IMG/VR virus record: IMGVR_UViG_3300037761_000289
Span: 925-64,924 of that record
Strand: one strand, 5' to 3'
From: a virus
Taxonomy: Duplodnaviria > Caudoviricetes
DNA length: 64,000 nucleotides
Part shown: positions 16,890-63,589 of the stretch, in pieces
Layout of the letters: each line of letters opens with the position of its first letter
Position numbering within the stretch: position 1 is the first letter of the stretch
The notes under the pieces: model-generated
What the model was told of the DNA's origin: nothing
Databases searched by the model: none
Seen by the model: only the letters and a program-made list of their open reading frames with translations
Program-made: the position numbers and the translations under genes

Positions 16890-16902
16890 GGCGGATGGCT
16901 CC

Positions 16903-17928
16903 TTAGACGTAGCTGGTCGAGCGGCCGGGGTTGAGTCGGTCGATGGTGGTCGGGCCCACCTGATACGGCTTGCGGTCGTAGACGCTGCGGGACGCGACGA
17001 GCCGGCCGCCGCACACGGCGCGGCGGCCGTCGCCGATCAGTGCCCGTAGCCGCGCCTCGAACCGGTCGACGAGGGCGTCGGTGCGGGAGCGCAGAGCGCG
17101 GGCCCGCCGGTAGCCTTCGGCGAACTCGGCGGCGACCTCGACAGGCTCGGCGTCGCCGTCGATGTCCGGGTGCAGGCGTTTGAGTGCGGTGATGGTGGTG
17201 TGGTGGCCGTCGTCGACCGGAGGTGGTTCCCCGGCGGTGAGACGGTGCACGAACCGGCGTCCGTGTTCGCGCATGAGCAGCAGGTCGGCGCGGGCGGACG
17301 AGTCGACGGTGCCGGCGTAGCAGCGGAACCCGCCGGGTCCAACGGCGGGCATGTACCACTGGTCGACGCCGAGCACGTCGCACTGCCAGAGCACCTGGGC
17401 CCGGTAGTGCACGGGGATGTCGTCGGTGTCGGGCTCGCCCCAGCCGTCCCAGCCGTGCAGCGACGACTTGCACTCCAGCACGGCCAGCGATGGCCCGTCG
17501 GTGCGCCAGCCTTTGCAGTCGGGGCATGGCCTGACGAGCGGGTCGATGTGGTGTTCCTCGGTGCCGGATCCACCGCAGTACGGGCACGCCATGTACACCA
17601 GCCGGTCGGGGGTGGCCAGCTGCCACGGCCGGTCGGGGTGCGCGTACAGGCCGGCCGGGGCGACGACCACGTTCTCCGGCGGGTCGCATTCGGCCGTCCA
17701 CCAGTCGGCGACCGCCGGCTCCAGGTAGTGGCCGGCCACCATCTCCGGGGTGATCTCAAGCTTCCAGCCGTGGATCTTCCGCCAGTACAGCGAGAAGGCG
17801 GACTCGAACGGGGAGATGCCCATCACCACGGCGATCTCCGACGCGGACACGCCGGTGCGTCGCGCGTCGAGCCACTCCGGCGAGCGTGCGGCGACCGACC
17901 CGGCCGGGACAACCTCCACGGCGTTCAC
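16903..17928 (-). CDS. YqaJ-family (lambda exonuclease-like) recombinase with Zn-finger insertion
   Basis: EWLDARRTGVSASE, LATPDRL, VLECK and YRAQVLWQ; CPYCGGSG...CPDCKG is inserted between the catalytic D and ExK motifs. Confidence 0.92.
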   Translation of the reverse strand: MNAVEVVPAGSVAARSPEWLDARRTGVSASEIAVVMGISPFESAFSLYWRKIHGWKLEITPEMVAGHYLEPAVADWWTAECDPPENVVVAPAGLYAHPDRPWQLATPDRLVYMACPYCGGSGTEEHHIDPLVRPCPDCKGWRTDGPSLAVLECKSSLHGWDGWGEPDTDDIPVHYRAQVLWQCDVLGVDQWYMPAVGPGGFRCYAGTVDSSARADLLLMREHGRRFVHRLTAGEPPPVDDGHHTTITALKRLHPDIDGDAEPVEVAAEFAEGYRRARALRSRTDALVDRFEARLRALIGDGRRAVCGGRLVASRSVYDRKPYQVGPTTIDRLNPGRSTSYV

Positions 17929-18266
17929 GCCGCCACCAGCTCCCGGACCCCGGCGAACCCGTCGTGGTCCTGGAGGTCCAACTCGGTGACGCCGAGCCGT
18001 TTCAGCACGCTGACCCACCACGCGTCGATGAGTTGCAGCATGTCCCGTTCGTACGCGGCGCAGTCGGCGACCAGGGCCACGTACCGTTCCACGTCGGTGG
18101 TGAACTCGTCGTCGATGCGGACCTCGGTGGCGTGGTGGAGCTCGGCGGCGTACTCCTCCGTAGCGCCTACGTGGACGGGTTCGTGGTGGCCGTCGTCGAT
18201 CGCGGCGGTGAGGGTGATGACGAAGACGAGCAGCAGGGCGGCGGTGACGATCAGCGCGGCGGTCAT
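17925..18266 (-). CDS. Protein with N-terminal TM anchor
   Basis: MTAALIVTAALLLVFVITLTAAI. Confidence 0.65.
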   Translation of the reverse strand: MTAALIVTAALLLVFVITLTAAIDDGHHEPVHVGATEEYAAELHHATEVRIDDEFTTDVERYVALVADCAAYERDMLQLIDAWWVSVLKRLGVTELDLQDHDGFAGVRELVAA

Positions 18267-24095: not shown

Positions 24096-24189
24096 ATCGT
24101 TCAGCGGGCACCCGCCTAGACGGTTTCCGGTGCCGGCGATCAACAGCACACCCAGCCAGCAGCGGATTTGCTACAGCGGAAAACACCGG

Positions 24190-24239
24190 CCCGCCTTACA
24201 AGCGGGGGGTCGCTGGTTCGATCCCAGCCGTGCCCACCA
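24190..24239 (+). other. attP core = 3' half of tRNA-Val(TAC)
   Basis: Anticodon arm CCCGC-CTTACAA-GCGGG, T arm GCTGG-TTCGATC-CCAGC, acceptor strand ending ACCA. No D arm or adjacent 5' acceptor strand; lies directly upstream of the integrase. Confidence 0.88.
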
Positions 24240-24309
24240 CCAGCACAAACACAGATCCTTCCGGTGCGGGACTTGTGCTACACCGGTCACCGGTCCCACG
24301 CTTACGCAC

Positions 24310-25263
24310 ATGGCGCCCCGACTGCCCCGCCCCGACCCCGGCACATACCAGCCGATGATCGACTCGTTCGTGCTGAGCCTGCGCATCGACAACAAGTCCG
24401 CGCGCACCATCGCCGCCTACACCGACGCCGCCGCCTGGTTCGGCGGCTGGCTGCTGCACCACCGGCCCGGCGTGACCGGCTGGGCGGCCGTGTCCCGCGA
24501 CGAGCTCCAGGCGTTCTTCCTGTGGCTGCTCGACCAGCGCGACCCGGCCGGCCGCGGCTACGCGCCGGGCTACGTCAACCACGTCGCCCGCGGCCTCCAG
24601 CAGTTCTTCCGCTGGCACGCCGCCGAAGAGGACGTCGCCGACCCGTTCGACAAGTTCAAGGTGCCGCCGCCACCGAAACTCGGCAGCGGCCTGGTCCCGG
24701 TGGTCGAGGTGGAGGACCTGGCGCGGCTGGTCCACGACGCGGAGGCCGGCCGGGATTACGAGTCGCGCCGCGACGCCGCGATCCTGCGGCTGTACGCCTG
24801 CACCGGATGCCGACTGTCGGAACTGGCCCTGCTGCGGGTGGCCGACGTCAACGTGCCCAACCGGACGGTGACCGTCACCGGCAAGGGCGCCAAGGTCCGC
24901 CAGGTGCGCATCGACCAGAAGGCGGCACGGGCCCTGGACCGGTTCCTGAGGGTGCGGGCCCAGCACCGGGCCGCCGGGCTGCCCGCGCTGTGGATCGGTG
25001 TCCGCCGGCGGGAGGGCATGACCGCCAAGGGCGTCTACCGGATGATCGTCCGCCGCAGTACCCGGCTGGGTATCAGGATCCACCCGCACCAGCTCCGGCA
25101 CACGTTCGCGCACCGCTGGTTGGACGCGGGCGGCGCCGAGGGTGACCTGATGGAGTTGGCCGGCTGGGAGTCGCCGCAGATGCTGAGGCACTACGGCGCG
25201 TCGGCCCGGGCCGCGCGGGCGCGCCGCGCCTACGACCGGGTCAACGTGATGGGGGACGTCTAG
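24310..25263 (+). CDS. int: Tyrosine integrase
   Basis: LYACTGCRLSEL (R), TGKG (K), HPHQLRHTF (HxxR), AGW (W) and LRHYG (Y). Confidence 0.95.
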   Translation: MAPRLPRPDPGTYQPMIDSFVLSLRIDNKSARTIAAYTDAAAWFGGWLLHHRPGVTGWAAVSRDELQAFFLWLLDQRDPAGRGYAPGYVNHVARGLQQFFRWHAAEEDVADPFDKFKVPPPPKLGSGLVPVVEVEDLARLVHDAEAGRDYESRRDAAILRLYACTGCRLSELALLRVADVNVPNRTVTVTGKGAKVRQVRIDQKAARALDRFLRVRAQHRAAGLPALWIGVRRREGMTAKGVYRMIVRRSTRLGIRIHPHQLRHTFAHRWLDAGGAEGDLMELAGWESPQMLRHYGASARAARARRAYDRVNVMGDV

Positions 25264-47159: not shown

Positions 47160-48035
47160 TCAGGACAGGGCCCGTTTCACGCCCTCGGCGAGCGACACCC
47201 GCGGCGTGTAGTAGCGGTGCAGCAGCGTCGGATCCCCGACCCGGTACGCCACACCGGCCGGCCGGTCCGCCAACAACTCGATCTCCGGCGCGTAGCCGAC
47301 GTGGCCGCACATCGCGGTGACCAGGTCCAGCATCGACGTGCCGACGCCGGTGCAGATGTTCACCGGATCCTCGGTGCCGGAGTCCACGACGGCCAGCGCC
47401 GCCGCCACCACGTCCGAGACGTGCACCCAGTCGCGGACCTGCTCGCCGCTGCCCCAGATGACGAACGGGTCCTCGCGGCGCCGGACCCGTTCGGCGAACG
47501 CGCCGAACGGCCAGCGTGTGTCCTGGACCTCGCCGTAGCCGGAGAACGGCCGCACGACGGTGACCGGGACACCGGCGGCCCGCGCGCCGGCCGCCATCCG
47601 CTCGCCGGTGACCTTCGCCCAGCCGTAGCCGGCATCGGGCGTGCCAATCCCGGCGTTGCCGAGGCTGACGTCGAACTCCCTCAGTCGCGGCTTCCATACA
47701 CCGCCTTGCTGATGTCCGATCGGGTACGCCGAACTCGACGAGACGTACAACACCCGCCGCTGACGGGTGCGCACCGCCCAGCCGAACATCGCCGCGTCGA
47801 GCAGCAGGTTGCGCGCCAGGTGCGTCGGCTGCGAGTCGATCGCCGCCCGGTGCGGTTCGACCGCCGCGCAGTGCACCACGATGTCGTGCGTCACGTCCGA
47901 CGTGCGGAACACGTCCAGCGCGTCGGTGCCGTCCACGACGTCGACCCCGGACACGTGGTAGCCGCGGCCGGTCAACTCGGCGGCGAAGTGCCGGCCCAGG
48001 AACCCCGCCGAACCGGTGACAAGCGCCGACCTCAC
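47160..48035 (-). CDS. NAD-dependent epimerase/dehydratase (extended SDR)
   Basis: LVTGSAGFLG, VVHCAA, YVSSSSAY, YGWAK, VVRPFSGYG and GSGEQVRDWVHVSDV. Confidence 0.95.
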   Translation of the reverse strand: MRSALVTGSAGFLGRHFAAELTGRGYHVSGVDVVDGTDALDVFRTSDVTHDIVVHCAAVEPHRAAIDSQPTHLARNLLLDAAMFGWAVRTRQRRVLYVSSSSAYPIGHQQGGVWKPRLREFDVSLGNAGIGTPDAGYGWAKVTGERMAAGARAAGVPVTVVRPFSGYGEVQDTRWPFGAFAERVRRREDPFVIWGSGEQVRDWVHVSDVVAAALAVVDSGTEDPVNICTGVGTSMLDLVTAMCGHVGYAPEIELLADRPAGVAYRVGDPTLLHRYYTPRVSLAEGVKRALS

Positions 48036-48622
48036 AGCTTCGCCGCCAGGATGAGCTGGAACCGGTCCACCTTGTCGTGGCGCAGGATCCGCCAACCGGC
48101 CATCGTCACCAGATCCCGGTAGCCCTGCCAGTCCATCGCCCACGCGTGGCACTCGTCATGCCAGTTCGGCGTCTCGTCCCACGGCGACGAGCAGACGAGG
48201 TGGGATGCGGCCGAACCGTGCACCCAACGCAGCACACCCACCGGGTCGGCGATGTGCTCCAGCACCTCCGTCAGGACCACCACGTCACCCAACCTGACCC
48301 GGGCCCGGTCGGCGCCGAACACGTCCAGCGCCTCCGCCTCGACGCCCCGCTCCGCCCAGCCGGCCGCGTTCGCCGGACAGAAGTCGTAACCCCACGCCCG
48401 TATCTCGCCGCCGAGCAGCTGCAACAGGCCACCGTCGCCGCAACCCAGGTCGGTGACGGTGCCGCCGCCCGACATCCGGACCGCGGCCCGCACCAGCCCG
48501 GCGGCGGCGAGCAGCCGCGGCCGGTGCAGATCCTGCTCCAGGTGCGGCGCCCGCGGCCGGTGCTCGTGGAACGCGAACGTCGACACGTGCGGAACGTCGC
48601 CGTCGAACAGCTTCCAGATCAT
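48032..48622 (-). CDS. Class I SAM-dependent methyltransferase
   Basis: VTDLGCGDGGLL, WGYD and LTEVLEHI. Confidence 0.9.
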   Translation of the reverse strand: MIWKLFDGDVPHVSTFAFHEHRPRAPHLEQDLHRPRLLAAAGLVRAAVRMSGGGTVTDLGCGDGGLLQLLGGEIRAWGYDFCPANAAGWAERGVEAEALDVFGADRARVRLGDVVVLTEVLEHIADPVGVLRWVHGSAASHLVCSSPWDETPNWHDECHAWAMDWQGYRDLVTMAGWRILRHDKVDRFQLILAAKL

Positions 48623-52579: not shown

Positions 52580-54040
52580 TCAACCCGTGTTGACCAACAA
52601 GCGGAACCCAAGATCATTCACGCTTCCTCCACCTATCCTCGCGTACCCGAACCAGCCCCTATTTCCGGTGGGGCGGTTACTTGTCACATCAAAAATATGG
52701 GGGATCAGCTCAATGGACATACCGCCCCTTCGGGCCAAAAGGTAGTTGTCCCAGTCGCCGACGATGGCGTACCCGGTCGTCGCGCTCGTGCTGGTGGTGG
52801 TGTCCGGCATGTACGGCGACTCGCGGACGCCCTTGCCGAGGATGGTGTCGGCCCATTCGGCGGGCAGGTTCTCGGTGAACGCGTGGAACCCGGTGACCTT
52901 GGCCAGCTGCCGGATCGCGTTGTTCACGGAGATCGACATCAACCAGTTCGCGCGGCGGCGGTACTTCTGGGGAAGCGCCGCCATGACGCGGTATGGCTCG
53001 GTCTCGCCGAACGCACCCGAGGTCTGAACACCGACCCGGACGTTGGTGTTCGCGGAGAGCGCGGTCAGGATGCCCTGCGGCTCGCCGGTGCCCGAGCCGC
53101 GGGTGAACTTGTCGACGAGCAGCTCGTCGTAGCCGACGGCGAGCAGCCGACTCATTTCCGACGCGAACGAGGGGTAGTCCTGGTCGACCTCGATGCTGAA
53201 CGGGATGAAGCCGCGGGCCATGTGCACCGTGACCGTCGGCTGAGCCAGCGTCGGGCTGTTGTCCGTCGCCGCCGCGCTTTCCGTCTGGAACGCCCACGTC
53301 ACACCGGCGGACGAGACGCCCTTCCACTGGTTGGTGTTGACGTTGACCTGCCGGGCCAACTCCAGGAACGGGTTCCCGCTCTCCTGCGCCGTCAAGATGA
53401 TCGACGGGTCGATGAAGACCGGGATTCCGAACCCACCCGCGGTGGTGGTGTTCTCCGACATCGCCCGGTATTCCTCCCACGCCTGCACGGCGCGGGACTC
53501 TTCCGGGGTGAGGAACGGCCGGGGGTGGGTGACCAGCTTCAGCCACGCCTCCCGGTACTCCTCGGTCTCGGTGACCAGCACCCGGCGGGCGATGTCGGTG
53601 CTGTGCCGGATCTGCTTGTCGGCCTCCGACTGCTCCTCGGCGGACATGTGGCCCGAGTTCTCCCGCGCCTCCAGGGTCCGCAGCGCCCGGTCGCGGGCGT
53701 CGCGGACCGACAGCCGGCGCACGTCGCCGAACGGGTCGTCCTTCTGCCCGCCGAGCCGCGAGTACTCGATCGCGGCCGGCCGGCGGCGCAGCACCTCGTT
53801 GACCTTGCGGTGTTCCTCGTACATCTTCTCGGCGGCCTCGTGGACCTCCAGCAGCATCTGAAGCGCCCGCTCCTCCGCCGCGTCCAGCGAGCGGAGCTCG
53901 CCGTTCGGCGTCTGGTGGATCGCCCGGATCTGCGCCTTCGTGACGTCGATGATGTCGCTGACTTCCTCGGGGGTCCGGCCCCTGAGGTCTTCGAGCGTGT
54001 AGTTCCGCTCGGGGGTTTCGGTTGTGCGGCTTTCAGGCAT
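52580..54040 (-). CDS. Major capsid protein (HK97 fold, with delta-like N-terminus)
   Basis: Coiled-coil N-terminus; AMSENTTTAGGFGIPVFID, WAFQTES and YAIVGDWDNY. Confidence 0.93.
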   Translation of the reverse strand: MPESRTTETPERNYTLEDLRGRTPEEVSDIIDVTKAQIRAIHQTPNGELRSLDAAEERALQMLLEVHEAAEKMYEEHRKVNEVLRRRPAAIEYSRLGGQKDDPFGDVRRLSVRDARDRALRTLEARENSGHMSAEEQSEADKQIRHSTDIARRVLVTETEEYREAWLKLVTHPRPFLTPEESRAVQAWEEYRAMSENTTTAGGFGIPVFIDPSIILTAQESGNPFLELARQVNVNTNQWKGVSSAGVTWAFQTESAAATDNSPTLAQPTVTVHMARGFIPFSIEVDQDYPSFASEMSRLLAVGYDELLVDKFTRGSGTGEPQGILTALSANTNVRVGVQTSGAFGETEPYRVMAALPQKYRRRANWLMSISVNNAIRQLAKVTGFHAFTENLPAEWADTILGKGVRESPYMPDTTTSTSATTGYAIVGDWDNYLLARRGGMSIELIPHIFDVTSNRPTGNRGWFGYARIGGGSVNDLGFRLLVNTG

Positions 54041-57000
54041 GCGTGAGCACTCCAAATGCTCGGAGCACCCGGTCTCGGGTGCGGGGATCGATGGGGGTTG
54101 ACCGCACGCCGTCTTCGGCCGCTTGGTCGTGATCACCGCGCCCCGCACCCTGTGCGGGTCCCCCGGTGAGGTCTGTGCCGCGCCCGTCGAGCGCGGTGAG
54201 GTCCACGGCGCGGTCGAGGTGACCGGCGAGCTCGTGGACGAGTTCCCGGATCTCCGCCGGGTCCATCGCGGCCAGCAGCGAGCGGACTCCGACGGATGTC
54301 GTGTCGTAGGCGGGGAAGACGACCGGTCCGAACTCGTGGACGTCGGCGTCGGTCACCTCGCGCCGTTCGACGCGCCCGTCGCGGCGCCAGTCGTCACCGC
54401 CGGCCGGCACCTCGAACCGGAAGGACATGCCCTTGACCGAGCCACCGACGATGGCCTGGCGGATCGGCTCGATGACCGGGTTGTCATACAGTTCCGCCGC
54501 GACGTATAGGCCGTCGCGGCGGTCGTCGAGGTCGAGGACCTGGGCTATGGGTACGGCCCCGACCCTCGGGTCACGGCCGTGTTCCCACTGCATCACCGGG
54601 GTCCGCTCGGCGAGGCTGCGGGTGAACGCGCCGGCGCGGATCGTCTCCTCGAAGTCGCCTTTCAGGTCGCGGATCCGGGCAGGCTTGCCGTACACCGCGG
54701 CGTAGCCTTCCAGCCGGCGGCCGTTGCCGGAACGCGTCGCGCGGGTGTCGAAGTCGAAGGCGCGCACGCACAGGCCCGCGACGCCCGCCGACCGACGCGG
54801 TCGGCGACGGCGCGGCGGCGGGCCACCGTCGACCGCGTCGGCGGCCGCGCCGAGGAACCGGACGATCGACGCCTCCCGCGAATGTTCCGTCTCGATGTCG
54901 TCGAACCCGGACGTGCCCTCGGCCGCGTCGAGCTCCGACGCCAGGTCGGCCAGCCGTTCCTGATGGTTGGCCTGGACCTCCCGAAGGCGCGCGGCTACGT
55001 CCCGGGGCGGCTTGCCGGCCCGAAGGTCACGCTTCGCCTCATCGGCGAACCGTCCCGCACCCTCCGGGGGGGCACCCAGCCCGTTGAGCGCGTCGAGGAG
55101 ATCTTTGCCGGCGGCCTTGACCGCCGCCTTCGGGCCACGGCGGCCGTGCTTGGACTGGTCGTGCAGATCCTTAAGGTGCCGGACGTCTGTGGCTGGCATG
55201 CCGACTCCTTGCGACCTCGTGGGGCCCGACTCGGCGGCGAAGCTGATGCCGTACTTCTCCCCGGCCGCCTTGATGCGGCCCTTGATGCGCTTGACCTGCT
55301 CCGGGGTGTACTTCGCCGCGTTGCCCGGCATGTTGATGTATGACCAGGCCGCCCGGCAGTGCCGTTCGGAGTCCAGCGGGTACCGCTTCTTGCCGTCGGA
55401 CTGGTAGCCGGGGTCGGCGTACGTTACGTCGCCGTACGGCATGTCCGCGCGGGCGCGCCTGGCCGGGCTGGTCTTCGTAGTGACCGGTGCTTCGGGCATG
55501 CCGGCTCCCCATCTGTCGTCCGGGTTTGCGGCGGCGCGGTCAGCACCCGAACGCGCCGGGATGCCACTACCACCCGGCAGCGTCCGGTCCCGGCGGACCA
55601 GGGTGCGCAGGGTCTCAGCGAACTGCCCGGCATCGTCGCGGTCGAGCTCGATGCTGTCACCGGTCGGCATCAGCACCGAGAAGGTGCCGTCGGTGAGCAG
55701 GCTCACGCCGAGGTCGTCGTTGATGTCCTCACCGTCGAGAGTGTCGGCGTCCTCCGGGGCGACGGGCTCCTTCGGCAGGTCGACCGTCAGGAGGCGGTCG
55801 ATCGCGGCGGCGAGCTGGTCCGCCTCGTCGATGCGCAACTCCGGCGGGTTCGCGGCGTCGCCACCGGCCAGCAGTTGGATCGTGTGGTCGCTCAGCAGCG
55901 AGACGTCGTAGTCGCCCACGCCTTCGGTTTCGACCTCGGCCGGCGGATGGTTGTCCCGCAGCGCTTCGAGGTGCTTGATGAGGTTGTCGAAACCGTCCTC
56001 GTCGAGATCCAACTCGTGGAAGTCGGGGTCGTCCTCAGTGTCCTCCGCCGTCGGTATGCCGACGGTGAGGACCGGGCCGAACTCGTCCAGGTCGTCGGGG
56101 TCGTCGGGGTCGCCCTCGTAGATCTGTTTCTCGCTGATGGCGAGGTAGATCCGCCCGCCGCTGGTCTCGACGATCGTGTCGTCGATGAGCCCGTCCTCGT
56201 TCCCGTCGCCGCCGCGCTGGCGCCACATCCCGAAAGCGCCGTCGCTGATCTTGTCGACGTCGCGGTAGGAGAAGTGGACCGTGGCCCCGTCCACGTTGCC
56301 GACACCGAGATCCATGGTGCCGTCGCCACGGATCCCGACATACATCGTTTCTTCGTCGCCGCCCAGGGTGTCGAACGAGATGTCGTCGAGAATGTCGGCG
56401 AGGTGCCCGACGAGCCCGCCGATCCCGGGCACGTCGACCCACTGGCCGTCAGTGTCCCGTGGCTGACGCGGATCAAACCGCTTCGCGGTCCGCACGCTCC
56501 CCTTGCCGGTACCGCCGCCCGCGTCGAGCAGACGAAGAATCTTGCGCAGCTCGGCGAGGTCGAACACGGCGCGGTCGATCCCGTTGTCCCAACCCTCGGG
56601 CGCTCCATCCGGGCGGACCACAAGGACCACTTGGGCGGCAGCTTCATCGACGAAAACCTGGTACTCAACGGTTGCCCACTCGCCAACGACATCGCCCTCG
56701 GCGACAGCGATGTAGCCGAGCGGATCGCCGCCGCGTGCGGCGTTGTGGGCCGCCGTCAACTCCTCAATGCGCCGGAAATTACGGTCGCGTTCAGCCTGGA
56801 GAGCTACCGCCTCGTCCCCACTCGCCGCGACCAACTCGTGGTAGTTGGCACCCTGACGTTCGAGGAGACGTTCAATCTCGTCCCAACGAGCGTTGTCATC
56901 CCGCGCCAGCCCCTCGGCCTCATCGGTGGCGCCACGCAGCGTGGCAGACAGCCGCAGGGCGGCGGGTTCATCGAGCCGCGCGGTGGTCCAGTCGTCACCT

Positions 57001-57422
57001 TCACCAAGCGCGTTCAGCCGTTCGGTCAGCCGTTCATACTCCGCGGACTCCTCGTCGAGCCGATCCCTTTCAACATCGATCCGTTGCCGCTCGGCGTGGT
57101 TTTCGGCTGTCCTCGACCGGTTCCCTGACCATGCCGGCATACCAACACCGGAGGGTTCCGTCGCAAGACGGATGGAACGCTGCCCGTCACGTCGTGTCAC
57201 CGCCACCCTGACGGCGCCCATGTCCCCATCGAGCTTGCCCGAGGACACCAACTCCTCGCCCGGGTCCAGGTCGATCCGGCCGGCCAGCCGCAGCTTGTCC
57301 AGCGGGTTGCGGACCGACGGGCCGGGAACGTCGACCCCGACCGTGTTGCCGTGCGACTGCTGGTTGTGCCCGCCGAGTTGGTGGCGGGCGTCGGCCTGGG
57401 CGGAGGGCACGGCGAAGCTCAT
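54033..57422 (-). CDS. 1129-aa polyprotein ending in an HK97-type prohead protease (with DUF6582-like domain)
   Basis: C-terminus LEGYAAVY...FEETIRAGAFTRSL...QWEH...GMSFRF...HEFGPVVFPAY; internal PYGDVTYADPGY...RYPLD...RAAWSYIN. Confidence 0.9.
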   Translation of the reverse strand: MSFAVPSAQADARHQLGGHNQQSHGNTVGVDVPGPSVRNPLDKLRLAGRIDLDPGEELVSSGKLDGDMGAVRVAVTRRDGQRSIRLATEPSGVGMPAWSGNRSRTAENHAERQRIDVERDRLDEESAEYERLTERLNALGEGDDWTTARLDEPAALRLSATLRGATDEAEGLARDDNARWDEIERLLERQGANYHELVAASGDEAVALQAERDRNFRRIEELTAAHNAARGGDPLGYIAVAEGDVVGEWATVEYQVFVDEAAAQVVLVVRPDGAPEGWDNGIDRAVFDLAELRKILRLLDAGGGTGKGSVRTAKRFDPRQPRDTDGQWVDVPGIGGLVGHLADILDDISFDTLGGDEETMYVGIRGDGTMDLGVGNVDGATVHFSYRDVDKISDGAFGMWRQRGGDGNEDGLIDDTIVETSGGRIYLAISEKQIYEGDPDDPDDLDEFGPVLTVGIPTAEDTEDDPDFHELDLDEDGFDNLIKHLEALRDNHPPAEVETEGVGDYDVSLLSDHTIQLLAGGDAANPPELRIDEADQLAAAIDRLLTVDLPKEPVAPEDADTLDGEDINDDLGVSLLTDGTFSVLMPTGDSIELDRDDAGQFAETLRTLVRRDRTLPGGSGIPARSGADRAAANPDDRWGAGMPEAPVTTKTSPARRARADMPYGDVTYADPGYQSDGKKRYPLDSERHCRAAWSYINMPGNAAKYTPEQVKRIKGRIKAAGEKYGISFAAESGPTRSQGVGMPATDVRHLKDLHDQSKHGRRGPKAAVKAAGKDLLDALNGLGAPPEGAGRFADEAKRDLRAGKPPRDVAARLREVQANHQERLADLASELDAAEGTSGFDDIETEHSREASIVRFLGAAADAVDGGPPPRRRRPRRSAGVAGLCVRAFDFDTRATRSGNGRRLEGYAAVYGKPARIRDLKGDFEETIRAGAFTRSLAERTPVMQWEHGRDPRVGAVPIAQVLDLDDRRDGLYVAAELYDNPVIEPIRQAIVGGSVKGMSFRFEVPAGGDDWRRDGRVERREVTDADVHEFGPVVFPAYDTTSVGVRSLLAAMDPAEIRELVHELAGHLDRAVDLTALDGRGTDLTGGPAQGAGRGDHDQAAEDGVRSTPIDPRTRDRVLRAFGVLTHA

Positions 57423-57516: not shown

Positions 57517-57639
57517 CTACTCGTCGTCGTCCTCGTCGGCCAGCGGCGGAATCCCCTGCGGTGCCTCGTCGAACTGGACGTTGTCGAACCAGTCCGCCAG
57601 CAGGGCGCTTTCCTCGGCGCGGTCGAACGGGTCGATCAC
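57517..57639 (-). CDS. 40-aa highly acidic peptide coupled to the portal-TopIB stop
   Basis: GTG at 57639 overlaps the TGA; MIDPFDRAEESALLADWFDNVQFDEAPQGIPPLADEDDDE. Confidence 0.55.
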   Translation of the reverse strand: MIDPFDRAEESALLADWFDNVQFDEAPQGIPPLADEDDDE

Positions 57640-59990
57640 AACCAGTCCTCCGATTGGACCCACGGATCGAAGACGGTCGGGTTGATGTAGCTCGCCAGCG
57701 CCAGGACCGGGGTGTTGCCCAACTCGGAGCTGACCGCCTCGGCGACCTCCCGCCGCCAACGCCTGAACTCCATTCTACTGCGCGGTTTCTCCTCACCGCG
57801 AACGGCGATCTCGCGGAGTGCGACCACATTGGCGTGCACCGTCCGGAGGTCTTTCAGCAGAAACTCACGTGGCACCCCGGTGGACTGCATGTAGGCGCGG
57901 GTGCGGTCCTCGTCGGTGTCGAACAGCGGCATGTCGCCGCTGCGGGTGGCCAGCCGCATCGACAGTGCGCGGGCGATGAGCGGGTCCCGCACCGTCAGCT
58001 GGATGTGCACGCCCTTCTTGCCGACGAAGTCCAGGCCGACCACGTCCCCGTCCACGGTGACGTGCCGGGCGCGTAGGTTCGTCGCGCCGTGCGCCTTCTC
58101 CTTCGCGCCCGTGTCCCGGTCCGACCCCGGCCGCATTCCCAGCCGGCGGATCAGCGCCAGCGCGGCCGCGTGGTCGTTGGTGTCGACGTCCCGCTCGATC
58201 GCGTGGTCCAACTTGTCCAGGTGCCTGTTCAGTTCCCGCACCCGGGCGAACTTCACCGCCGCCTGCGACTCGGTGTGCTCCGCAGAGTAGATCGTCTGCC
58301 CGCGGCCCTTGGAGTCCCGCCCCCTGGCGAGGATCTTCGCCGAGTCCAGGTCGTCGGCGATGTGCACGTCGGTCCACGCCGGCGGGATCGCCTTGCCGAC
58401 CTTGGCCCGGAAGTCGGCCCGGTCCTGCTCGGTGGCGGCGTGCATGCCGCCGAAGACGGCCCGCGCGACGTCGCCGACCACGTCGCCGACCCATTCGCCG
58501 GTGTGCGGGTCGCGCGGCTGGCCGGGGTCGAACCTGCGCTGTCCGGCCCGGCCGCGGGCCGGGTCGTCGCCCACGGCGGCCGGTGGGCCACCGGCAGCCT
58601 TCCCGCCGGACGGGGCTTCCGCCCCGGGCTCCTGAAGCTGCACGGACGTCAACCCGGTGTGCTGCAACAGGGAGATGTCCTGCCCGCGGACCGCGGCGAT
58701 CGCCGAGTCGGCGGTGAAACCCTCACGTACATACATGGTGATGGTGGCGGCCTTGACCTGCTCGATCTCGGCGGCGTCCTTGGCGTCCTCCCGCAGCAGC
58801 AGAACATCGGCGGTGTCGAACCACAGTTCCGCGTCGCGGGGCACGTCGATGACCGCGGCGAGCGCGCCGCACAACCCGGCCGCCTTCGGATACACCCACG
58901 TGTCGGCGAAGATACGGCGCGCCTGGCCGAAGTTGCCGGCGTTCAGGCTCGACCCGGCCAGCCCCTCGGCGATCTGCAGGATCGCCGCCGGCACCCGCGA
59001 CAGCATCGCGATCCGCGTCTCACCCTGACCCTGGACGGACTTCAGGTCCAGGTCGTTGAGGTTGGCCCCGACCGGCATCACGTCCGCGCCGCCGGTCAGA
59101 TACAACGTGCGGAACGCGTTGGCGACACCCGCGTGGCGGGCCTCCAACATCTCGACGATCTCGTCGAACTGCTCCTTGGTCGCCAACGGCCGGCCGTCGG
59201 GGGCGGTCAGCCCCTTGATGACGAGGTTCGGCGTGGCCGAGTTCTGCCAGTACTGCAACTTGAACTCGCTGATCGCCCGATCGCCCTGCAGGTCCCGGAT
59301 CGCCGGGGTCAGCCACGACATGCCCAGACCAGGCATCAGCGCATCCGGTTCCGGCGCCCAGTGCGCGACCTCGTTGGGCAGCAACGTCGAAGGCCGGTTC
59401 GTGCCCCCGAACAGCCCGCCGTTCTGGTAGACGTAGCCCAGCAGTTCGCGGTCCAACGCCCAGCCCGGGTCGTCGGGTTCCCGCTGCGACCCGTAGACGA
59501 TGCCCACCCAGTCCGGGCGCATCACGAACAGCCGCTTCGGCTGGCGGTGCACGTAGGCGTTGCCGGCCAGGCCCGCGTGCCACTCCATCCGGGCCAGCAT
59601 CTCCCCGGTGGTGACGTTGGTGTCCGGATTCTCCAGCGGCGCCAACGCGGTGGTGCCGAACTGCCGCCGGGGTGTCCTCGTGCTCGGCAGGTTCCGGAAT
59701 GTGAACCGCAGCTGCGACAGCACCGCGGTGCGGACCAGCTCGGCGGCGAACGCCGGCGGGCAGCCGTTGACCGCCGCCGCGTACCCCGGCAGCGAGTTCG
59801 CGATCTCCGAGATTCGGATCCCGCCGAGCGTCTGCAGCAACCGGGCACCCGGATGCCCGTAGCCGTACGTCTGACCGCCGTAGCCGAACGTCCCCGCCTG
59901 TTGCAGGATGCCCAGGTAGGTGTCGGCGCTGTAGCGGACCTCCGACGTGTCCCGACGCGCCAGGGCGCTGATGCGGTCAGCCAGTGCCAC
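57636..59990 (-). CDS. Portal protein fused to C-terminal DNA topoisomerase IB
   Basis: Portal motifs GNAYV, MRPDWV, VAHWAP, GMSWL, NSATPNLVI and RIAMLSRVP. Then IPPAWTDVHI, GRDSKGRGQTIY, GMRPG, FVGKKG, KDLRT and LGNTP...SYINP. Confidence 0.9.
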   Translation of the reverse strand: MALADRISALARRDTSEVRYSADTYLGILQQAGTFGYGGQTYGYGHPGARLLQTLGGIRISEIANSLPGYAAAVNGCPPAFAAELVRTAVLSQLRFTFRNLPSTRTPRRQFGTTALAPLENPDTNVTTGEMLARMEWHAGLAGNAYVHRQPKRLFVMRPDWVGIVYGSQREPDDPGWALDRELLGYVYQNGGLFGGTNRPSTLLPNEVAHWAPEPDALMPGLGMSWLTPAIRDLQGDRAISEFKLQYWQNSATPNLVIKGLTAPDGRPLATKEQFDEIVEMLEARHAGVANAFRTLYLTGGADVMPVGANLNDLDLKSVQGQGETRIAMLSRVPAAILQIAEGLAGSSLNAGNFGQARRIFADTWVYPKAAGLCGALAAVIDVPRDAELWFDTADVLLLREDAKDAAEIEQVKAATITMYVREGFTADSAIAAVRGQDISLLQHTGLTSVQLQEPGAEAPSGGKAAGGPPAAVGDDPARGRAGQRRFDPGQPRDPHTGEWVGDVVGDVARAVFGGMHAATEQDRADFRAKVGKAIPPAWTDVHIADDLDSAKILARGRDSKGRGQTIYSAEHTESQAAVKFARVRELNRHLDKLDHAIERDVDTNDHAAALALIRRLGMRPGSDRDTGAKEKAHGATNLRARHVTVDGDVVGLDFVGKKGVHIQLTVRDPLIARALSMRLATRSGDMPLFDTDEDRTRAYMQSTGVPREFLLKDLRTVHANVVALREIAVRGEEKPRSRMEFRRWRREVAEAVSSELGNTPVLALASYINPTVFDPWVQSEDWL

Positions 59991-60282
59991 CGGCGGCCCT
60001 CGGCTTACGGGCACGCGTCGGCCACCTCTCAGGCGCGAAGTTCCGGCGGGCCGCCTGCTCCCGGGCGTCCAACCAGCCGAGCCGGACACCCGCCGCGCAC
60101 CAACCCGCCGCCGCACGCACCGCCCGCATCACACCACCGACCACCGCGAGAACCCAGAACGCGACCCAGCCCACAGCCCAGAAACACGCGCCGATGCCCG
60201 ACGCGACCACCCGGCCCGGCTCCACCGTCCGCGGCGGCGCCATCTCGATCTCTTCGGTGATGCGATCAGCCAGGGAGACCAC
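59977..60282 (-). CDS. Small membrane protein between terL and portal
   Basis: FWAVGWVAFWVLAVVGG...GVRLGWLDAR. Confidence 0.75.
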   Translation of the reverse strand: MVSLADRITEEIEMAPPRTVEPGRVVASGIGACFWAVGWVAFWVLAVVGGVMRAVRAAAGWCAAGVRLGWLDAREQAARRNFAPERWPTRARKPRAAGGTG

Positions 60283-60296
60283 AGGTTCGACCTCCT

Positions 60297-62873
60297 CTAG
60301 CGCCAGGTAGCGAAGAACGGGGTCAGCGGTGGGGCGGTGGCGTGCCCGTGCAACGCCAGCGTGAACGACACCAACGGCGAGATGTCGACCTCCGACGTCA
60401 TGCGGTGCCACGCCCACGCGCCGTCGCCGAGGTCCCGCCTCGCCGCGCCCCGGACCGCCGCCGACAGGGCACGGACGTATTCGGCGTTACCCGCCCACTT
60501 CAGGTTGCGCAGCTCGGCGTGTTCGCCGGCGATCGCGTCGAACACCCGCCCGCATGCCCGGCCCAGCTCCGGCCGGTTGACACGCCGAACCGTGATCCCG
60601 GCCGCCTCGACGTCATCGGCGAGCGCACCGGCCGGACCCGACGCGTCGGCCAACCACTGCGACGGCCGCCACTTCGTGTTCAGCTCCACAACCCGGTCCA
60701 CCATCCACGTCACACCCGGCCGCCGGTCCACGACCTCGCCGTGCTGCCACCCGCCCGCGCCGGCGGCGCCGACACTGATCGACGACCAGGTCCGCTCCGG
60801 GTTCGTGTCGAACGCGAAACACACCGGGTCGACCGGCCGCGACAGCGGATCGTGCGCGGCCTCCCACTCCGGCTTGCCGATGACCAACCAACCGTCGTCC
60901 GGCTCCAGCGGCCACGCACCCAGAGCCTCGGCGTCGAACCGGTCGCCGAGAGTGCTCAGGTCGTGTTCCACGTCATCCTCGCCCAGCAGAACACCCCACG
61001 ACGGGTTCGTCGACCGCCACACCTCACGGTCGGTGCGGACATAGCCCGGCGGCGGCGACCACTCATGCCAGCCGATCCGGCCCGCACCGTCAGACGCCAG
61101 CGCGCGGCGGCGGACCTTCGCCCAGTAGGTGCCCCGATCGATCGGCGGCGTGCCCATGTACACCAACTGCGGGTTGGGCCGGGCCCGCTGGGTCGGGCCG
61201 AGAGCCGCCATCTCGTCCTCGGACAGGCCCATCTGCGCCTCGTCAAGGATCAGCACGTCGGCGGAGAACCCCCGGATCGACTCCTTCGACCGCGCCTTGA
61301 CCAACAGCCGCTGCGGCGGATCCCGCAACTTGATCGCCTCGTCGCCGCGGGCGTGACTCACGCCCTTCAGTCGGCGGCGCAACGCCGGGGTGTCCTCGAC
61401 GCACTGCACCAGCCGCAGGAAGATCTCCTTGGCGGTCCCGACCTGGTGCGCCGTGTACACGATCAGCTGCTCGCCGAAGACGTACAGGCCGGCCAGGATC
61501 CGGATCACCGCGATGACCGAGTTGTGGGTCGGGACCAGATCCCGGCCGGCCAGGTAGAGCCCGTCCGGAGAGTCGACGGTGATGCACCGCACCGGCACCG
61601 ACGGCACCGGCTCGATACGCGCGACGCTCAGCGTCGCCCGCCCCTTGCCGCCGTCGACCGCCTTCACCCGGGCGGCCTTGCGGGGCATCCGGAACGGCAC
61701 GAACGGATCCAGCCTGGTCGGCGTCCAACACACCCGGAACTTCGGCCCGCAGTCCCGCCCGTTCAGCGTGGCCCGGTGCTCGACGAGCGTCGCCCGCCAG
61801 CCCAGCGACCGGGCTAGGAACAGTACGCCGTCGGCCAGCGCGCGGGTGGTCGAGCAGAACTCCACCTGCCCACGCCGGGCCTCGATCGTGCCGTCGGTGT
61901 CAAGCAGACCCTGAAGCAGAGCCTCACGCTGCGCGGCGCCGGCGGTCAGGTAGACATCCGGAATGTGCTTGTCGCCGAGCACGCCCAACGCCCGCAGCAA
62001 CGGTTGCATCCCGGTCCGGCCGCCGGGCCGTCCGTCCGTGGTGTTGAACCGCAGGTGCCACGCGGTGTTACAGGTGTTCCGCACCCGGCTGACCACCCGG
62101 TAGCCGGCAGCCTCAACCTGGGCGACCATGTGCCCGAGGTCCTCGCCGCCGACCGTCAGTGCCGCGCCCCTGGAATCGCCGTCACCGAGCCACGCACCGA
62201 ACATGTACGGGTCGATCGGCAGGTCAACGACCGGCGACTTCAGCGGCTCCTGAGTGGGCAGTTGGAACCGGTACTCGTTCGTCGCGTACGTCTTGCCGTC
62301 GGTCACCGACGTACGTCCCCCGCCGGGGTGGCGCGACAACCCCCCGGCCAGCATGTCTGCCGTCGTCACCGTGCGGGCCTCGAACCACCTGCGGCGTTCC
62401 CCACGCGGCCCCGCCGAACGTTCCCGCCGCTTGTCGGTCACGGTCCACAGGTGGTCCGCGTCAGCGACCACCGACCGGCCGTCGGTCGTCGTGACGCGGT
62501 AGCACTCGTGGCCCAGCAGCACGTCGGAGACCGCCACCACGGCCACCGGATAGCCGGCGGGGTGGAAAACCTCGTCACCAACCCTGATCCCGGCCAGGGA
62601 CACCCAGCCGCGGTTCGCCGTCAAGATGGGCGTACCGGCATCCAGCGCTTTGCCGTTCTGTCGAGGTACTACCAGGCCCGACTCGCGGCACGCCCACCGG
62701 CCCGGCGCCCGCTCGGACAGCATGTCGTCCACGACCAGCGACTGCCACGGCAAGCAGACAATGCCCGCCACCTCGGCGATCTCACGGGCCGCCGGACCCT
62801 CGGTGCCGATCCGGTCAGGTGCCCGGTGCTGCCTTGGCGACGTGAGCGGCGCGGCGAGCAGCGAGCTCGTCAA
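60297..62873 (-). CDS. terL: Terminase large subunit containing an intein
   Basis: TTG start at 62873; Walker A VPRQNGK|S split by the intein, YTAHQ, Walker B LILDEAQ, and nuclease FAFDT...DISPLVS. Confidence 0.93.
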   Translation of the reverse strand: MTSSLLAAPLTSPRQHRAPDRIGTEGPAAREIAEVAGIVCLPWQSLVVDDMLSERAPGRWACRESGLVVPRQNGKALDAGTPILTANRGWVSLAGIRVGDEVFHPAGYPVAVVAVSDVLLGHECYRVTTTDGRSVVADADHLWTVTDKRRERSAGPRGERRRWFEARTVTTADMLAGGLSRHPGGGRTSVTDGKTYATNEYRFQLPTQEPLKSPVVDLPIDPYMFGAWLGDGDSRGAALTVGGEDLGHMVAQVEAAGYRVVSRVRNTCNTAWHLRFNTTDGRPGGRTGMQPLLRALGVLGDKHIPDVYLTAGAAQREALLQGLLDTDGTIEARRGQVEFCSTTRALADGVLFLARSLGWRATLVEHRATLNGRDCGPKFRVCWTPTRLDPFVPFRMPRKAARVKAVDGGKGRATLSVARIEPVPSVPVRCITVDSPDGLYLAGRDLVPTHNSVIAVIRILAGLYVFGEQLIVYTAHQVGTAKEIFLRLVQCVEDTPALRRRLKGVSHARGDEAIKLRDPPQRLLVKARSKESIRGFSADVLILDEAQMGLSEDEMAALGPTQRARPNPQLVYMGTPPIDRGTYWAKVRRRALASDGAGRIGWHEWSPPPGYVRTDREVWRSTNPSWGVLLGEDDVEHDLSTLGDRFDAEALGAWPLEPDDGWLVIGKPEWEAAHDPLSRPVDPVCFAFDTNPERTWSSISVGAAGAGGWQHGEVVDRRPGVTWMVDRVVELNTKWRPSQWLADASGPAGALADDVEAAGITVRRVNRPELGRACGRVFDAIAGEHAELRNLKWAGNAEYVRALSAAVRGAARRDLGDGAWAWHRMTSEVDISPLVSFTLALHGHATAPPLTPFFATWR
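61521..62648 (-). mobile_element. Class 3 intein (376 aa) with LAGLIDADG homing endonuclease
   Basis: Starts with Ala (ALDAGTP); W in ADHLW, C in VRCITV, T in PTHN|S; endonuclease motifs FGAWLGDG and LQGLLDTDG. Confidence 0.92.
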
Positions 62874-63099
62874 CGCGGGACACCTCCACCTCCAGCCCCG
62901 CCGCGGCGATCGCGTCGAGGGTGCCACGCCATTCGCGGGCGGTCGCGGGTGCCGGCGCGGTGTCCAGATCCAGGTGACGGGCCAGGATGTAGGCCGCCTC
63001 GGCCAGCGCCAGCGTGTGCGCGGGCGGATCCTTGAGCCCCCGGACGTAGGCCCGGGTGGCGCGTTCGATGGGGCCGCCCGTGTCAGAATCCGTGGACAT
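62815..63099 (-). CDS. terS: Terminase small subunit
   Basis: Directly precedes terL; AYILARHLD...EWRGTL...SRVDELAARRA. Confidence 0.8.
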   Translation of the reverse strand: MSTDSDTGGPIERATRAYVRGLKDPPAHTLALAEAAYILARHLDLDTAPAPATAREWRGTLDAIAAAGLEVEVSRVDELAARRAAHVAKAAPGT

Positions 63100-63589
63100 C
63101 CCCGATCCCCTCGCCGCGAATCACCTCCGCAGCCGGTGGCACCGCAAGGTACTCGGCTGCCTGGCGGCACACCTCGGGGTCATCGCGAAAGAATCCGATG
63201 CCGGTGTTGCATCTAGAGCAGAGGAGTCCGCGGACGCGGCCGGTTACGTGATCATGATCCACGGGCCAGGCCGTGCGGCCAAGAGGCTGAGAGCCGCCTG
63301 GCTCGCTCGCTCCGCAGATCGCGCAGCCGCCGCCCTGATATGCCAGCAACGCCTCGTACTGCTCGAGCGAGAGGCCGTACTGCAACTTGATCCTGCTGGC
63401 CCAGAAGACCTCGCGCGGGACTCGCCGGCCGCGCTCTCTGTCCAAGGTCTTCGACCGTTCGGTTTGGCATTGGCGACACCGTGCGGGTGCCCTGCGAAGC
63501 CCCAGCGCGGTGAGCGTCGCGCCGCAGTCGAGGCACGGATAGTCATCGAAGTTTCTCAATGCGGGTCTCCCGGATTGCGAGAGCCCCAC
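63083..63589 (-). CDS. Endonuclease VII-like (HNH) endonuclease
   Basis: YGLSLEQYEALLAYQGGGCAIC...VDHDHVTGRVRGLLCSRCNTGIG. Confidence 0.9.
   Translation of the reverse strand: MGLSQSGRPALRNFDDYPCLDCGATLTALGLRRAPARCRQCQTERSKTLDRERGRRVPREVFWASRIKLQYGLSLEQYEALLAYQGGGCAICGASEPGGSQPLGRTAWPVDHDHVTGRVRGLLCSRCNTGIGFFRDDPEVCRQAAEYLAVPPAAEVIRGEGIGDVHGF

Follow-up and report, generated by a model that had tools for sequence, protein, structure and literature searches.

A phage portal protein extended by a type IB topoisomerase: an apparently mobile cassette with a predicted partner peptide

What purpose might a type IB topoisomerase (TopIB) serve at the end of a phage portal protein? The question is raised by a gene of an uncultured phage with a complete, metagenomic genome of 65 kb, of which we analysed a window of 64,000 nucleotides (positions 925 to 64,924 of IMG/VR record IMGVR_UViG_3300037761_000289). 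An integrase gene is present in the phage genome, and on this ground the phage is judged to be temperate. A previous interpretation of the bare letters, hereafter the sequence-only reading, had reported a portal fused in frame to a catalytically intact TopIB and had put forward two functions for it: relief of torsion during packaging or ejection, or delivery into the host after being cut off. Full-text literature searches returned no paper in which TopIB is linked to a phage portal, to MuF or to a virion, and we found no published description of the loading of a TopIB into the phage particle via the portal.

The fusion gene and its neighbourhood

The gene lies on the minus strand at 57636..59990, with a GTG start at 59990, 784 codons and a TGA stop, and is contained in a single open frame (57636..60116, minus strand) of the ORF listing. 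GTG 59990 is the start used by the nearest homologues, and the resulting product of 784 aa is identical to P0001 of the protein collection. The sequence-only reading had given 57636-59990, which is correct, and had left the strand unstated; the motifs that it had quoted are all found and in the same order (IPPAWTDVHI, GRDSKGRGQTIY, GMRPG, FVGKKG, KDLRT, LGNTP and SYINP).

Residues 1-468 (58587..59990, minus strand) form a complete HK97-family portal domain, recognised by Pfam, by PHROG 12 and 2662 and by a solved structure. The Phage_portal profile (PF04860) matches with an E-value of 6e-24 (85.1 bits against a cut-off of 39.1). In a comparison of the first 470 residues with the Mycofy1 portal (9lw9_A), residues 11-468 align onto 9-460 of 466 (E 1e-86), and because this match runs from end to end the portal is complete and about 316 residues are appended to it; the domain end that had been placed near 58640 was right to within about 50 nt. 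The closest portal (P0003, 481 aa, 83% identical) stops without a TopIB, and the deposited phage portals that match this part, at about 40% identity, come only from Gordonia, Mycobacterium and Rhodococcus phages and are all TopIB-less. Together with a G+C content of 70%, these relatives make actinobacteria of the soil the probable hosts.

The position of the gene is also that of an HK97-family portal. The head module is ordered as terminase, small ORF, portal-TopIB, peptide, protease polyprotein and capsid protein, with the three flanking head genes all on the minus strand. The upstream neighbour is the large terminase subunit (60297..63170; PHROG 9 and 15), which carries a LAGLIDADG intein (Pfam LAGLIDADG_3 and Hom_end at residues 403-469). 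The head polyprotein of 1129 residues (54033..57422) has uncharacterised N-terminal parts, followed by DUF6582 (residues 658-728, Pfam E 6e-17) and a C-terminal S78 prohead protease (residues 891-1046, nt 54285-54752; Peptidase_S78 E 1e-20), and matches PHROG 80, the head maturation protease; a search of the ESM Atlas with its two uncharacterised parts gave no usable match. The HK97-fold major capsid protein (52580..54148) has a long N-terminal extension and is matched by Phage_capsid at residues 238-518 (E 1.5e-32) and by PHROG 10.

Residues 513-784 (57639..58454, minus strand) hold both domains of a type IB topoisomerase, as indicated by Pfam, by the solved structure 2f4q and by a predicted model searched with Foldseek. 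A profile search and a structure prediction of this part had been suggested by the sequence-only reading, and both point to a TopIB. In the former, Topoisom_I is found above its cut-off (E 3e-14, 53.4 bits against 23.7), while Top1B_N_bact scores 22.9 bits, under its cut-off of 27; the strands of the N-terminal domain are nonetheless modelled. In the latter, AlphaFold gives a TopIB fold with a pLDDT of about 90, whose best Foldseek matches are the bacterial structure 3m4a (E 1.3e-14) and variola TopIB (2h7f, E 7.6e-14). The full-length model, built on a 44-row alignment, was used for the TopIB half only, the portal half having a pLDDT below 50, and the geometry of the tether between them is therefore taken from homology alone.

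The Deinococcus radiodurans TopIB (2f4q/3m4a) is the best match both in sequence (E 2e-20 with the last 274 residues) and in structure (E 1e-14) and has the same two-domain layout. The R, K, R, N and Y of its catalytic pentad are aligned with R620, K658, R716, N759 and Y768 of the phage protein (the codon of Tyr768 is at 57687-57689), Asn standing where poxvirus enzymes have His. The D. radiodurans protein, however, is free-standing and of about 346 aa, whereas the phage TopIB forms the C-terminal part of a virion protein, is 26-27% identical to it and has a partner peptide. The pentad is invariant in 44/44 portal fusions and in 229/229 related domains, with N in 227 of the latter, and the domain is predicted to be catalytically competent. 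As a whole, the in-frame fusion of a complete portal with a complete TopIB whose catalytic residues are intact is borne out by the profiles, the solved structures, the model and the pentad.

Between the two domains lies a Pro/Gly/Ala low-complexity linker (residues 469-512; 58455..58586, minus strand), which is predicted to be disordered; the AlphaFold pLDDT is below 50 across residues 445-505. The junction was the place where an error of sequencing or assembly could have merged a portal gene with a separate TopIB gene, and the natural occurrence of a split form in another phage (L005) would fit such an origin. Against it, GC3 computed over 300-nt windows of the portal frame never leaves the range 0.86-0.97 over the junction, continuously and in one frame, and the fused layout is shared by a 68%-identical homologue from another sample (L002) and by about 45 further protein clusters, 46 in all. 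Moreover, comparison with this homologue gives dN/dS values of 0.41 (portal), 0.22 (linker) and 0.23 (TopIB), by which measure the linker is under purifying selection. From the continuous GC3 and the homologues with the same architecture we conclude that the fusion is no assembly artefact, the chance of one being practically negligible.

The sequence-only reading had named as its own refutation a hidden stop, with TopIB beginning at ATG 58445. This finds no support: by codon statistics and in the roughly 45 homologous clusters the frame is continuous, and in 18 loci the Met lacks a preceding Shine-Dalgarno sequence. The same codon, the invariant Met516, was considered as an internal start that would yield a free TopIB, and was rejected on finding no usably spaced Shine-Dalgarno-like sequence in the window and in 17 other loci; a structural role of Met516 is more likely.

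A cassette on several head proteins

The portal C-terminus is polymorphic. Portals that are 57-83% identical end with nothing, with TopIB, with an ADP-ribosyltransferase, or with kinase-like or unknown domains, and in the sister portals these alternative domains follow the same 'SVQLQxPG' end. The sequence-only reading had proposed a search for homologous portals with the same or swapped C-terminal domains, and both types were found; it had missed that TopIB is a swappable cassette on this terminus.

The cassette is not confined to portals of this family. The nearest TopIB copies, 66-72% identical, belong to MuF proteins (P0122, P0123), to a Mu-type portal (P0121) and to a separate gene directly behind a portal gene (P0239, L005). 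The split form of L005 was examined as a programmed frameshift and rejected, being an ordinary gene overlap in which the ATG of TopIB, in the +1 frame, lies 17 nt ahead of the stop codon of the portal. Counted by cluster, the carriers are PF04860 portals (46), PF06074 portals (6), PF06381 portals (4) and MuF/minor capsid protein 2 (10), so that the comparison with enzyme cargo of MuF proteins made by the sequence-only reading was apt and is strengthened, the same TopIB cassette sitting on MuF proteins themselves. In 126 of 150 representative proteins the TopIB occupies the extreme C-terminus of a larger protein, and the carriers that can be classified are all head-internal. In some cases TopIB shares its polypeptide with Acb1 and 2H phosphoesterase domains, and it is carried by multi-enzyme proteins of up to 2320 aa. 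Acb1 is an anti-CBASS enzyme. A counter-defence role similar to that of Acb1 has been proposed for 2H domains (Iyer et al. 2017, PMC5512222).

In a tree of 229 TopIB domains the carriers are intermixed, and each type requires several independent joins: 5 changes for the HK97 portal (at least 3 forced by well-supported branches), 14 for MuF (at least 7), 5 for the Mu portal (at least 4) and 6 for Phage_portal_3 (at least 4). By its distribution over carriers and over the tree, TopIB is a mobile cassette. The pool of TopIB-like sequences amounts to 4430 clusters (50% identity) matching at E <1e-3, the top matches being mostly joined to further domains, which belong to head proteins wherever the carrier can be classified. 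A tblastn search of 50,697 deposited phage records with the domain gave no match, nor did a cultured model phage emerge, and 185,579 prokaryote species genomes contained only distant Pedobacter TopIBs (27-28% identity), taken as cellular, and no prophage copy of the cassette.

A short motif is associated with many of these joins. In the fusion, the junction tag RFDPGQPRDPHTGEWV is found within the linker at residues 486-501 (58488..58535, minus strand), and the motif recurs before other cargo: in sister portals and in a Mu-type portal it stands ahead of TopIB, of ADP-ribosyltransferase and of unknown cargo. Of 226 proteins, 84 have a tag of one of three related types upstream of TopIB, against 0.85 expected from shuffles. 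The tag was also considered as a universal feature of the cassette, which is rejected, since this frequency is far above chance and the tag is not obligatory. A six-frame motif scan of the window found exactly two copies in long open frames, one in the portal linker and the other, RFDPRQPRDTDGQWV, in the polyprotein at residues 315-329 (56436..56480, minus strand). A free-standing TopIB likewise has the tag in its leader, a finding as compatible with docking as with cleavage. Our guess is that it may be a loading or cleavage signal; as candidate signals, junction tags might be exploited for packaging foreign proteins into phage heads.

An acidic peptide predicted over the active site

Directly downstream of the fusion is a gene that the sequence-only reading had missed. 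Read from the sequence at 57517..57639 (minus strand), it encodes an acidic peptide of 40 residues, its GTG start overlaps the portal stop (GTGA), and its Shine-Dalgarno sequence, GGAGGA, sits within the last TopIB codons. The peptide has 14 acidic residues and 1 basic, and ends in EDDDE. A PHROGs scan assigned it to no family. A homologous peptide follows TopIB in 16/22 other loci and divergent acidic peptides in 6 more; whatever the carrier, it is conserved downstream of TopIB, in some loci as an ORF of its own and in others as an N-terminal extension of the following head protein.

The predicted complex of TopIB and peptide scored an ipSAE of 0.89, 0.87 and 0.89 in three runs, the best of 3 controls scoring 0.00; this score is the model's own confidence, obtained on our own alignments, so that its calibration, in which the mark is reached by 58/80 solved complexes and 2/110 mismatched pairs, holds only roughly. 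At least 88% of the contacts are common to the runs, with a peptide pLDDT of at least 77, and the predicted interface takes in R620, K658, N759 and Y768. The peptide is predicted, in these models, to lie across the active site, from which we infer that it inhibits the enzyme. If it does, phages would encode a natural inhibitor of TopIB some 40 residues long, which could be useful as a tool and as an example of how DNA is mimicked.

A proposed course from packaging to infection

These observations can be joined in one mechanism, in which TopIB would be an enzyme cargo inside the head, supplied with its own safety catch and set free or set to work upon infection; we regard this reading as fairly probable. 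The cassette would have three parts: junction tag, TopIB and the acidic peptide of about 40 residues, which is translated on its own. Recombination would have grafted the cassette repeatedly onto HK97-type, Mu-type and Phage_portal_3 (PF06381) portals, onto MuF and onto larger multi-enzyme proteins. In the phage studied here, the crown-side C-terminus of the portal would carry TopIB on a flexible tether of about 45 residues, with up to twelve copies per head ringing the opening through which DNA enters and exits. Crown domains sit inside the capsid and contact DNA (PMC12886913), and because the portal crown is inside the capsid, portal topology would place the TopIB there too. The peptide, laid as a DNA-mimicking safety catch across the predicted DNA-binding cleft and active site, would keep the enzyme off DNA in the cell that makes the phage and inside the filled head alike.

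Infection would then unleash the enzyme, possibly while it is still bound to the portal; more likely, the prohead protease encoded next to it would have cut at the tag, in which case TopIB might leave the head together with the genome. A portal-fused domain can exit the head only if it is cut, and cleavage at the tag is putative. Once unleashed, TopIB might relax supercoils without ATP, on the incoming phage DNA or on the host chromosome, as the poxvirus enzyme does. Of the two functions conjectured by the sequence-only reading, we would favour the cut-off and injected cargo over the torsion swivel, because the cassette is found on several carriers and is accompanied by the plug peptide.

A swivel would work differently: TopIB would stay on the portal, relieving twist during packaging or exit, and would never be delivered to the host. 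It would be covalently tethered, in up to 12 copies, to a ring passed by all of the DNA, the crown termini of other portals touch DNA (PMC12886913), and the site at which it might be cut away is only putative; yet 83%-identical portals work without TopIB, so that packaging is independent of it, and the same cassette is carried by MuF, by the multi-enzyme proteins of up to 2320 aa and by a free-standing gene. That TopIB shares polypeptides with the anti-defence enzyme Acb1 and with 2H domains, whose place of action would be the host cytoplasm, also speaks against a swivel, and an enzyme needed during packaging would hardly be encoded together with a peptide that is predicted to block its active site. 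We consider a TopIB that remains on the portal for this purpose unlikely.

It is quite improbable that the enzyme works late in the producing cell, ahead of assembly, on substrates such as replicating DNA or concatemers, with the fusion ensuring only co-expression. Its location in a late head operon would suit such a role and the L005 split form shows that the covalent link is dispensable, but the domain is at the extreme C-terminus of most of its representative carriers, all head-internal where classifiable, and many independent fusions argue for selection on the physical link; in addition, a translationally coupled plug predicted to block the active site would silence TopIB once made. Vaccinia TopIB is established to perform suicide cleavage near DNA ends. 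This chemistry would permit the catalytic Tyr to make a lasting 3'-phosphotyrosyl link near the genome end, holding or protecting that end at the portal crown, and it has been proposed that the leading genome end is anchored by portal crowns (PMC12886913). Specific support for such an anchor is absent, however, the full pentad, general-acid lysine included, is invariant as in enzymes that turn over, and the cassette also sits on carriers away from the crown, all of which leaves this use of the domain very improbable.

To return to packaged and delivered cargo, poxviruses provide the one well-known case, to our knowledge, of a virus with TopIB inside its particle. The virion-packaged poxvirus enzyme aids early transcription, and we know of no dedicated inhibitor peptide of it. 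The phage domain shares with the variola and vaccinia enzymes (2h7f, 3igc, 1a41) a small two-domain fold, with a TM-score of 0.64 on the target, but the poxvirus enzyme has His in its pentad and CCCTT specificity and is a free core protein, unfused to any structural protein. If the phage TopIB is packaged and delivered, supercoiling could be changed independently of ATP in the first moments of infection, before phage gene expression, which would bear on early transcription, genome circularisation and host shut-off, and possibly on escape from defences that read topology.

We advance only tentatively the broader possibility that many uncultured tailed phages carry a head TopIB that is held off DNA by a DNA-mimicking peptide and released at infection, where it would collapse or reset supercoiling without ATP for host takeover or counter-defence, and that this pool could be a source of bacterial TopIB. 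An 'undiscovered viral group' has been proposed as such a source (Forterre and Gadelle 2009, PMC2647321); the phage pool of 4430 clusters could be that group, and so bears on the origin of bacterial TopIB.

Two known systems are closely comparable. In polyvalent proteins, effector domains are fused to portal or MuF proteins of phages (Iyer, Burroughs, Anand, de Souza, Aravind 2017, PMC5512222). As here, an enzyme is joined to these proteins in phages of the portal-terminase type, the cargo, predicted to travel in the virion and to enter the cell at infection, varies among relatives, and 2H phosphoesterase domains, which stand beside TopIB in some cassette proteins, are among it; the cargo listed there comprises RNase (PBECR), 2H, InPase and others, whereas TopIB and an acidic partner peptide are absent, the word 'topoisomerase' occurring in the reference list only. 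In the MuF polymorphic toxins of temperate phages, a very small downstream ORF has been read as immunity for 89% of toxin genes (Jamet et al. 2017, PMC5576092, in which the word 'topoisomerase' is absent). The resemblance extends to the conserved head-protein carrier, the swappable C-terminal enzyme, the very small ORF after it and the temperate phage. In contrast with these toxins, the cargo here is a DNA-relaxing enzyme and not obviously a toxin, and the carrier is the portal itself, which would be present in 12 copies and be part of the shell; its polymorphic C-terminus suggests that the portal, besides MuF, may be a loading dock for interchangeable enzymes.

Portal-TopIB gene and its head module

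The portal-TopIB gene lies in one minus-strand open frame (57636..60116), where the GTG at 59990, the start used in the nearest homologues, gives a product of 784 residues (P0001). Its front part is a portal according to PHROGs. In Pfam, the curated cut-offs are clearly exceeded by Phage_portal (E 6e-24) and by Topoisom_I (E 3e-14), and narrowly missed by the bacterial TopIB N-terminal domain. A solved portal structure exists for mycobacteriophage Mycofy1 (9lw9_A, 466 aa), and residues 11-468 match it over its full length (E 1e-86); this makes the portal complete, with about 316 residues appended. The last 274 residues align with the Deinococcus radiodurans TopIB (2f4q, E 2e-20), including the Arg, Lys, Arg, Asn and Tyr. 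In the AlphaFold model the TopIB part has a pLDDT of about 90 and is recognized by Foldseek as a TopIB fold (best matches bacterial TopIB 3m4a, 1.3e-14, and variola TopIB 2h7f, 7.6e-14); the linker (445-505) comes out disordered, and the model of the portal part is poor. The sequence-only reading, which had claimed an in-frame fusion of a portal and an intact TopIB, thus holds: its seven TopIB motifs are all present in the order claimed, and the profile search and structure prediction it had proposed both return a TopIB. The gene encodes a complete portal with an intact TopIB as its C-terminal module.

GC3 in the portal frame stays at 0.86-0.97 in all 300-nt windows over the junction. Moreover, P0002, from a locus of an unrelated sequencing run (L002), is 68% identical with the same uninterrupted architecture, and PF04860 and PF01028 are combined in 46 clusters (90% identity). 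Compared with L002, the portal has a dN/dS of 0.41, the linker of 0.22 and TopIB of 0.23. Continuous GC3, fused homologues and dN/dS together make an assembly artefact very unlikely on sequence grounds. A separate TopIB gene starting at ATG 58445, which the earlier reading had named as the refuting case, lacks a ribosome-binding site in the window and in 17 other loci.

The gene is located in a textbook head module, which runs, all on the minus strand, from the large terminase through a small ORF, the portal-TopIB gene and a 40-codon ORF to a protease polyprotein and the capsid protein. The large terminase subunit (60297-63170, -) is interrupted by a LAGLIDADG homing-endonuclease intein, which brings it to 957 residues; LAGLIDADG_3 and Hom_end (Pfam) match at residues 403-469, with terminase PHROG matches on either side. 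Inteins also occur in a sister portal (P0067) and in a MuF-TopIB protein (P0122). The HK97-fold capsid protein (52580-54148, -) is preceded by a 1129-residue protein with a C-terminal S78 prohead protease (54033-57422, -), which carries a HQLGGHNQQSHGN motif at its N-terminus and a DUF6582, and whose first ~650 residues have no match in Pfam, PHROGs or the ESM Atlas; the protein resembles a head-internal polyprotein made of several parts.

The virus record is 64,924 bp long and 100% complete (CheckV); the window, with a G+C content of ~70%, covers nearly all of it. A tyrosine integrase (24130-25263, +), homologues of the RecT/RecE recombination pair (15504-18021, -) and, on the same strand as that pair, a ParB-like domain fused to a DNA methyltransferase (9534-10826, -) indicate a temperate phage with its own recombination system, and the relatives of the portal point to actinobacterial hosts. 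An unexpected find among the structural genes is a tail-region protein (47160-48152, -) that matches the PHROG 'nucleotide-sugar epimerase' (E 4e-40).

A mobile cassette on varied carriers

The search for portals with the same or swapped C-termini, also proposed in the sequence-only reading, found TopIB, nothing or other cargo among related portals. P0003, the nearest portal, has 83% identity over residues 1-468 and ends at 481 residues without TopIB. Other portals of this family have the end 'SVQLQxPG' in common and then continue into an ADP-ribosyltransferase (P0013 and P0052, in one of which a Rho_N domain accompanies it), a PI3/PI4-kinase-like domain (P0019) or unassigned domains (P0009, P0049, P0075, P0100). 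The closest TopIB copy is that of P0002 (80% identity); the next-closest (66-72%) are found on MuF proteins (P0122, P0123, P0125), on a Mu-type portal (P0121) and as a free-standing gene (P0239), none on an HK97-type portal. This last copy represents a natural split form: in L005:2497-5022, a MAG contig, a 479-aa portal is directly followed by a TopIB gene of its own (324 aa), which starts with an ATG 17 nt upstream of the portal stop and whose product is 72% identical to the window domain; next come an acidic peptide of 43 aa, an S78 protease and a capsid protein.

When 1.84 billion representative proteins were searched exhaustively with HMMER, TopIB was matched in 4430 clusters at an E of 1e-3 or below, 1053 of them at 1e-30 or below. 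Among the best 150 matches, 100 exceed 450 residues, and in 126 the TopIB ends no more than 25 residues from the C-terminus. Carrier types are mixed across a FastTree phylogeny built from 229 TopIB domains: 14 changes are needed for MuF (at least 7 forced by well-supported branches), 6 for Phage_portal_3 (at least 4), and 5 each for the Mu portal (at least 4) and the HK97 portal (at least 3). The window TopIB and P0002 fall outside the main clade of HK97-portal fusions, which indicates an independent fusion event. The catalytic residues are strictly conserved, the pentad being kept in 229/229 domains, with Asn in 227. Some TopIB proteins share a polypeptide with 2H phosphoesterases, and P0230 is a portal-Acb1-TopIB protein, Acb1 being an anti-CBASS enzyme. 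TopIB is also joined to an ATP-dependent DNA ligase domain in P0231 and to a ParB-like domain in P0191.

Junction tag and partner peptide

Between portal and TopIB, at residues 486-501, lies the tag RFDPGQPRDPHTGEWV; a second copy, RFDPRQPRDTDGQWV, with the pattern RFDPxQPRDxxGxWV, is found inside the neighbouring protease polyprotein (residues 315-329), and a motif scan of the long open frames of the window returned these two alone. The same short motif, or one of the related forms HPRDxxGKF, HLPGxHxQxxHG and NxxHxxxxGxF, occurs at junctions to TopIB and other cargo in sister proteins. Of 226 proteins, 84 have one of these tags in the 90 residues that precede TopIB, where shuffles predict 0.85; among the 47 HK97-portal carriers the figure is 44. 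The tag could be either a prohead-protease cleavage site or a docking signal, and tags may delimit segments of the polyprotein. The free TopIB of L005 retains a 50-residue leader with a HLPGGHNQESHGN tag, which speaks against release from a carrier as the tag's sole role.

The portal-TopIB stop overlaps the GTG (GTGA) of the 40-codon ORF (57517-57639, -), and a GGAGGA lies 6 nt upstream of this GTG, within the conserved final TopIB codons (S-E-D-W-L; 57640-57660, -). This arrangement probably couples the translation of the two genes, and the overlap with the Shine-Dalgarno sequence may explain part of the conservation of the TopIB tail. The peptide has 14 acidic residues, 1 basic residue and a C-terminal EDDDE. 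In 16 of 22 further loci surveyed a homologue (consensus EE..LL..WF.T..FD.E..G[IV]P.L.PE.DDE) starts in the interval from 25 nt upstream to 2 nt downstream of the TopIB stop codon, irrespective of the type of carrier (HK97 portal, Mu portal, MuF or none); in 5 loci it forms the N-terminus of the next, larger head protein, and other acidic peptides lie downstream of 6 more divergent TopIBs. TopIB module and partner peptide move jointly among head-internal carriers. In L004:5680-9006, downstream of a MuF-TopIB gene, a 1108-residue protein with two HxT motifs typical of 2H phosphoesterases carries the acidic peptide as an in-frame N-terminal fusion; the plug there would belong physically to another head-cargo protein.

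The complex of TopIB (residues 510-784) and peptide, both given as alignments, was predicted with ipSAE 0.89, 0.87 and 0.89 in three runs, against 0.00 for the best of three controls; 58 of 80 solved complexes attain this ipSAE mark, as do 2 of 110 mismatched pairs, a calibration that is approximate with custom alignments. Contacts agree by at least 88% between runs, partner pLDDT is at least 77, and the confident interface comprises R620, K658, N759, Y768 and nearly the whole peptide. No solved TopIB-peptide complex is known to us from which the model could have drawn this result. The modelling supports binding of the peptide to TopIB, and the peptide is predicted to fill the DNA cleft and active site as a safety catch.

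Possible working in the head

Poxvirus virions contain TopIB. In phages, enzymatic domains fused to portal and MuF domains have been described and predicted to be injected (Iyer et al. 2017, PMC5512222), and MuF polymorphic toxins are followed by small candidate immunity genes (Jamet et al. 2017, PMC5576092). Enzyme cargo on portal and MuF is thus already known as a type; topoisomerase cargo, as encoded here, is absent from both descriptions, full-text literature searches found no paper tying TopIB to a phage portal, MuF or virion, and a search of 50,697 deposited phage genomes returned no similar TopIB.

The crown and wing domains of portals lie inside the capsid, with the crown funnel facing the head centre (PMC12886913), so that from this topology the TopIB copies would be held within the head, around the DNA channel. 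By analogy with portal/MuF effectors, MuF toxin-immunity pairs and the poxvirus enzyme, the peptide-blocked TopIB would be unleashed at infection, probably after a cut by the adjacent S78 protease, and would relax supercoils in phage or host DNA independently of ATP. We lean towards this composite reading, with some reserve. Its main rival, a resident swivel in which TopIB never leaves the portal, appears rather unlikely: near-identical portals lack the domain, the cassette is also found on non-portal carriers, and a plug peptide is ill-suited to an enzyme needed during packaging. The phage TopIB pool (4430 clusters) is a candidate for the 'undiscovered viral group' proposed as the source of bacterial TopIB (Forterre and Gadelle 2009, PMC2647321).
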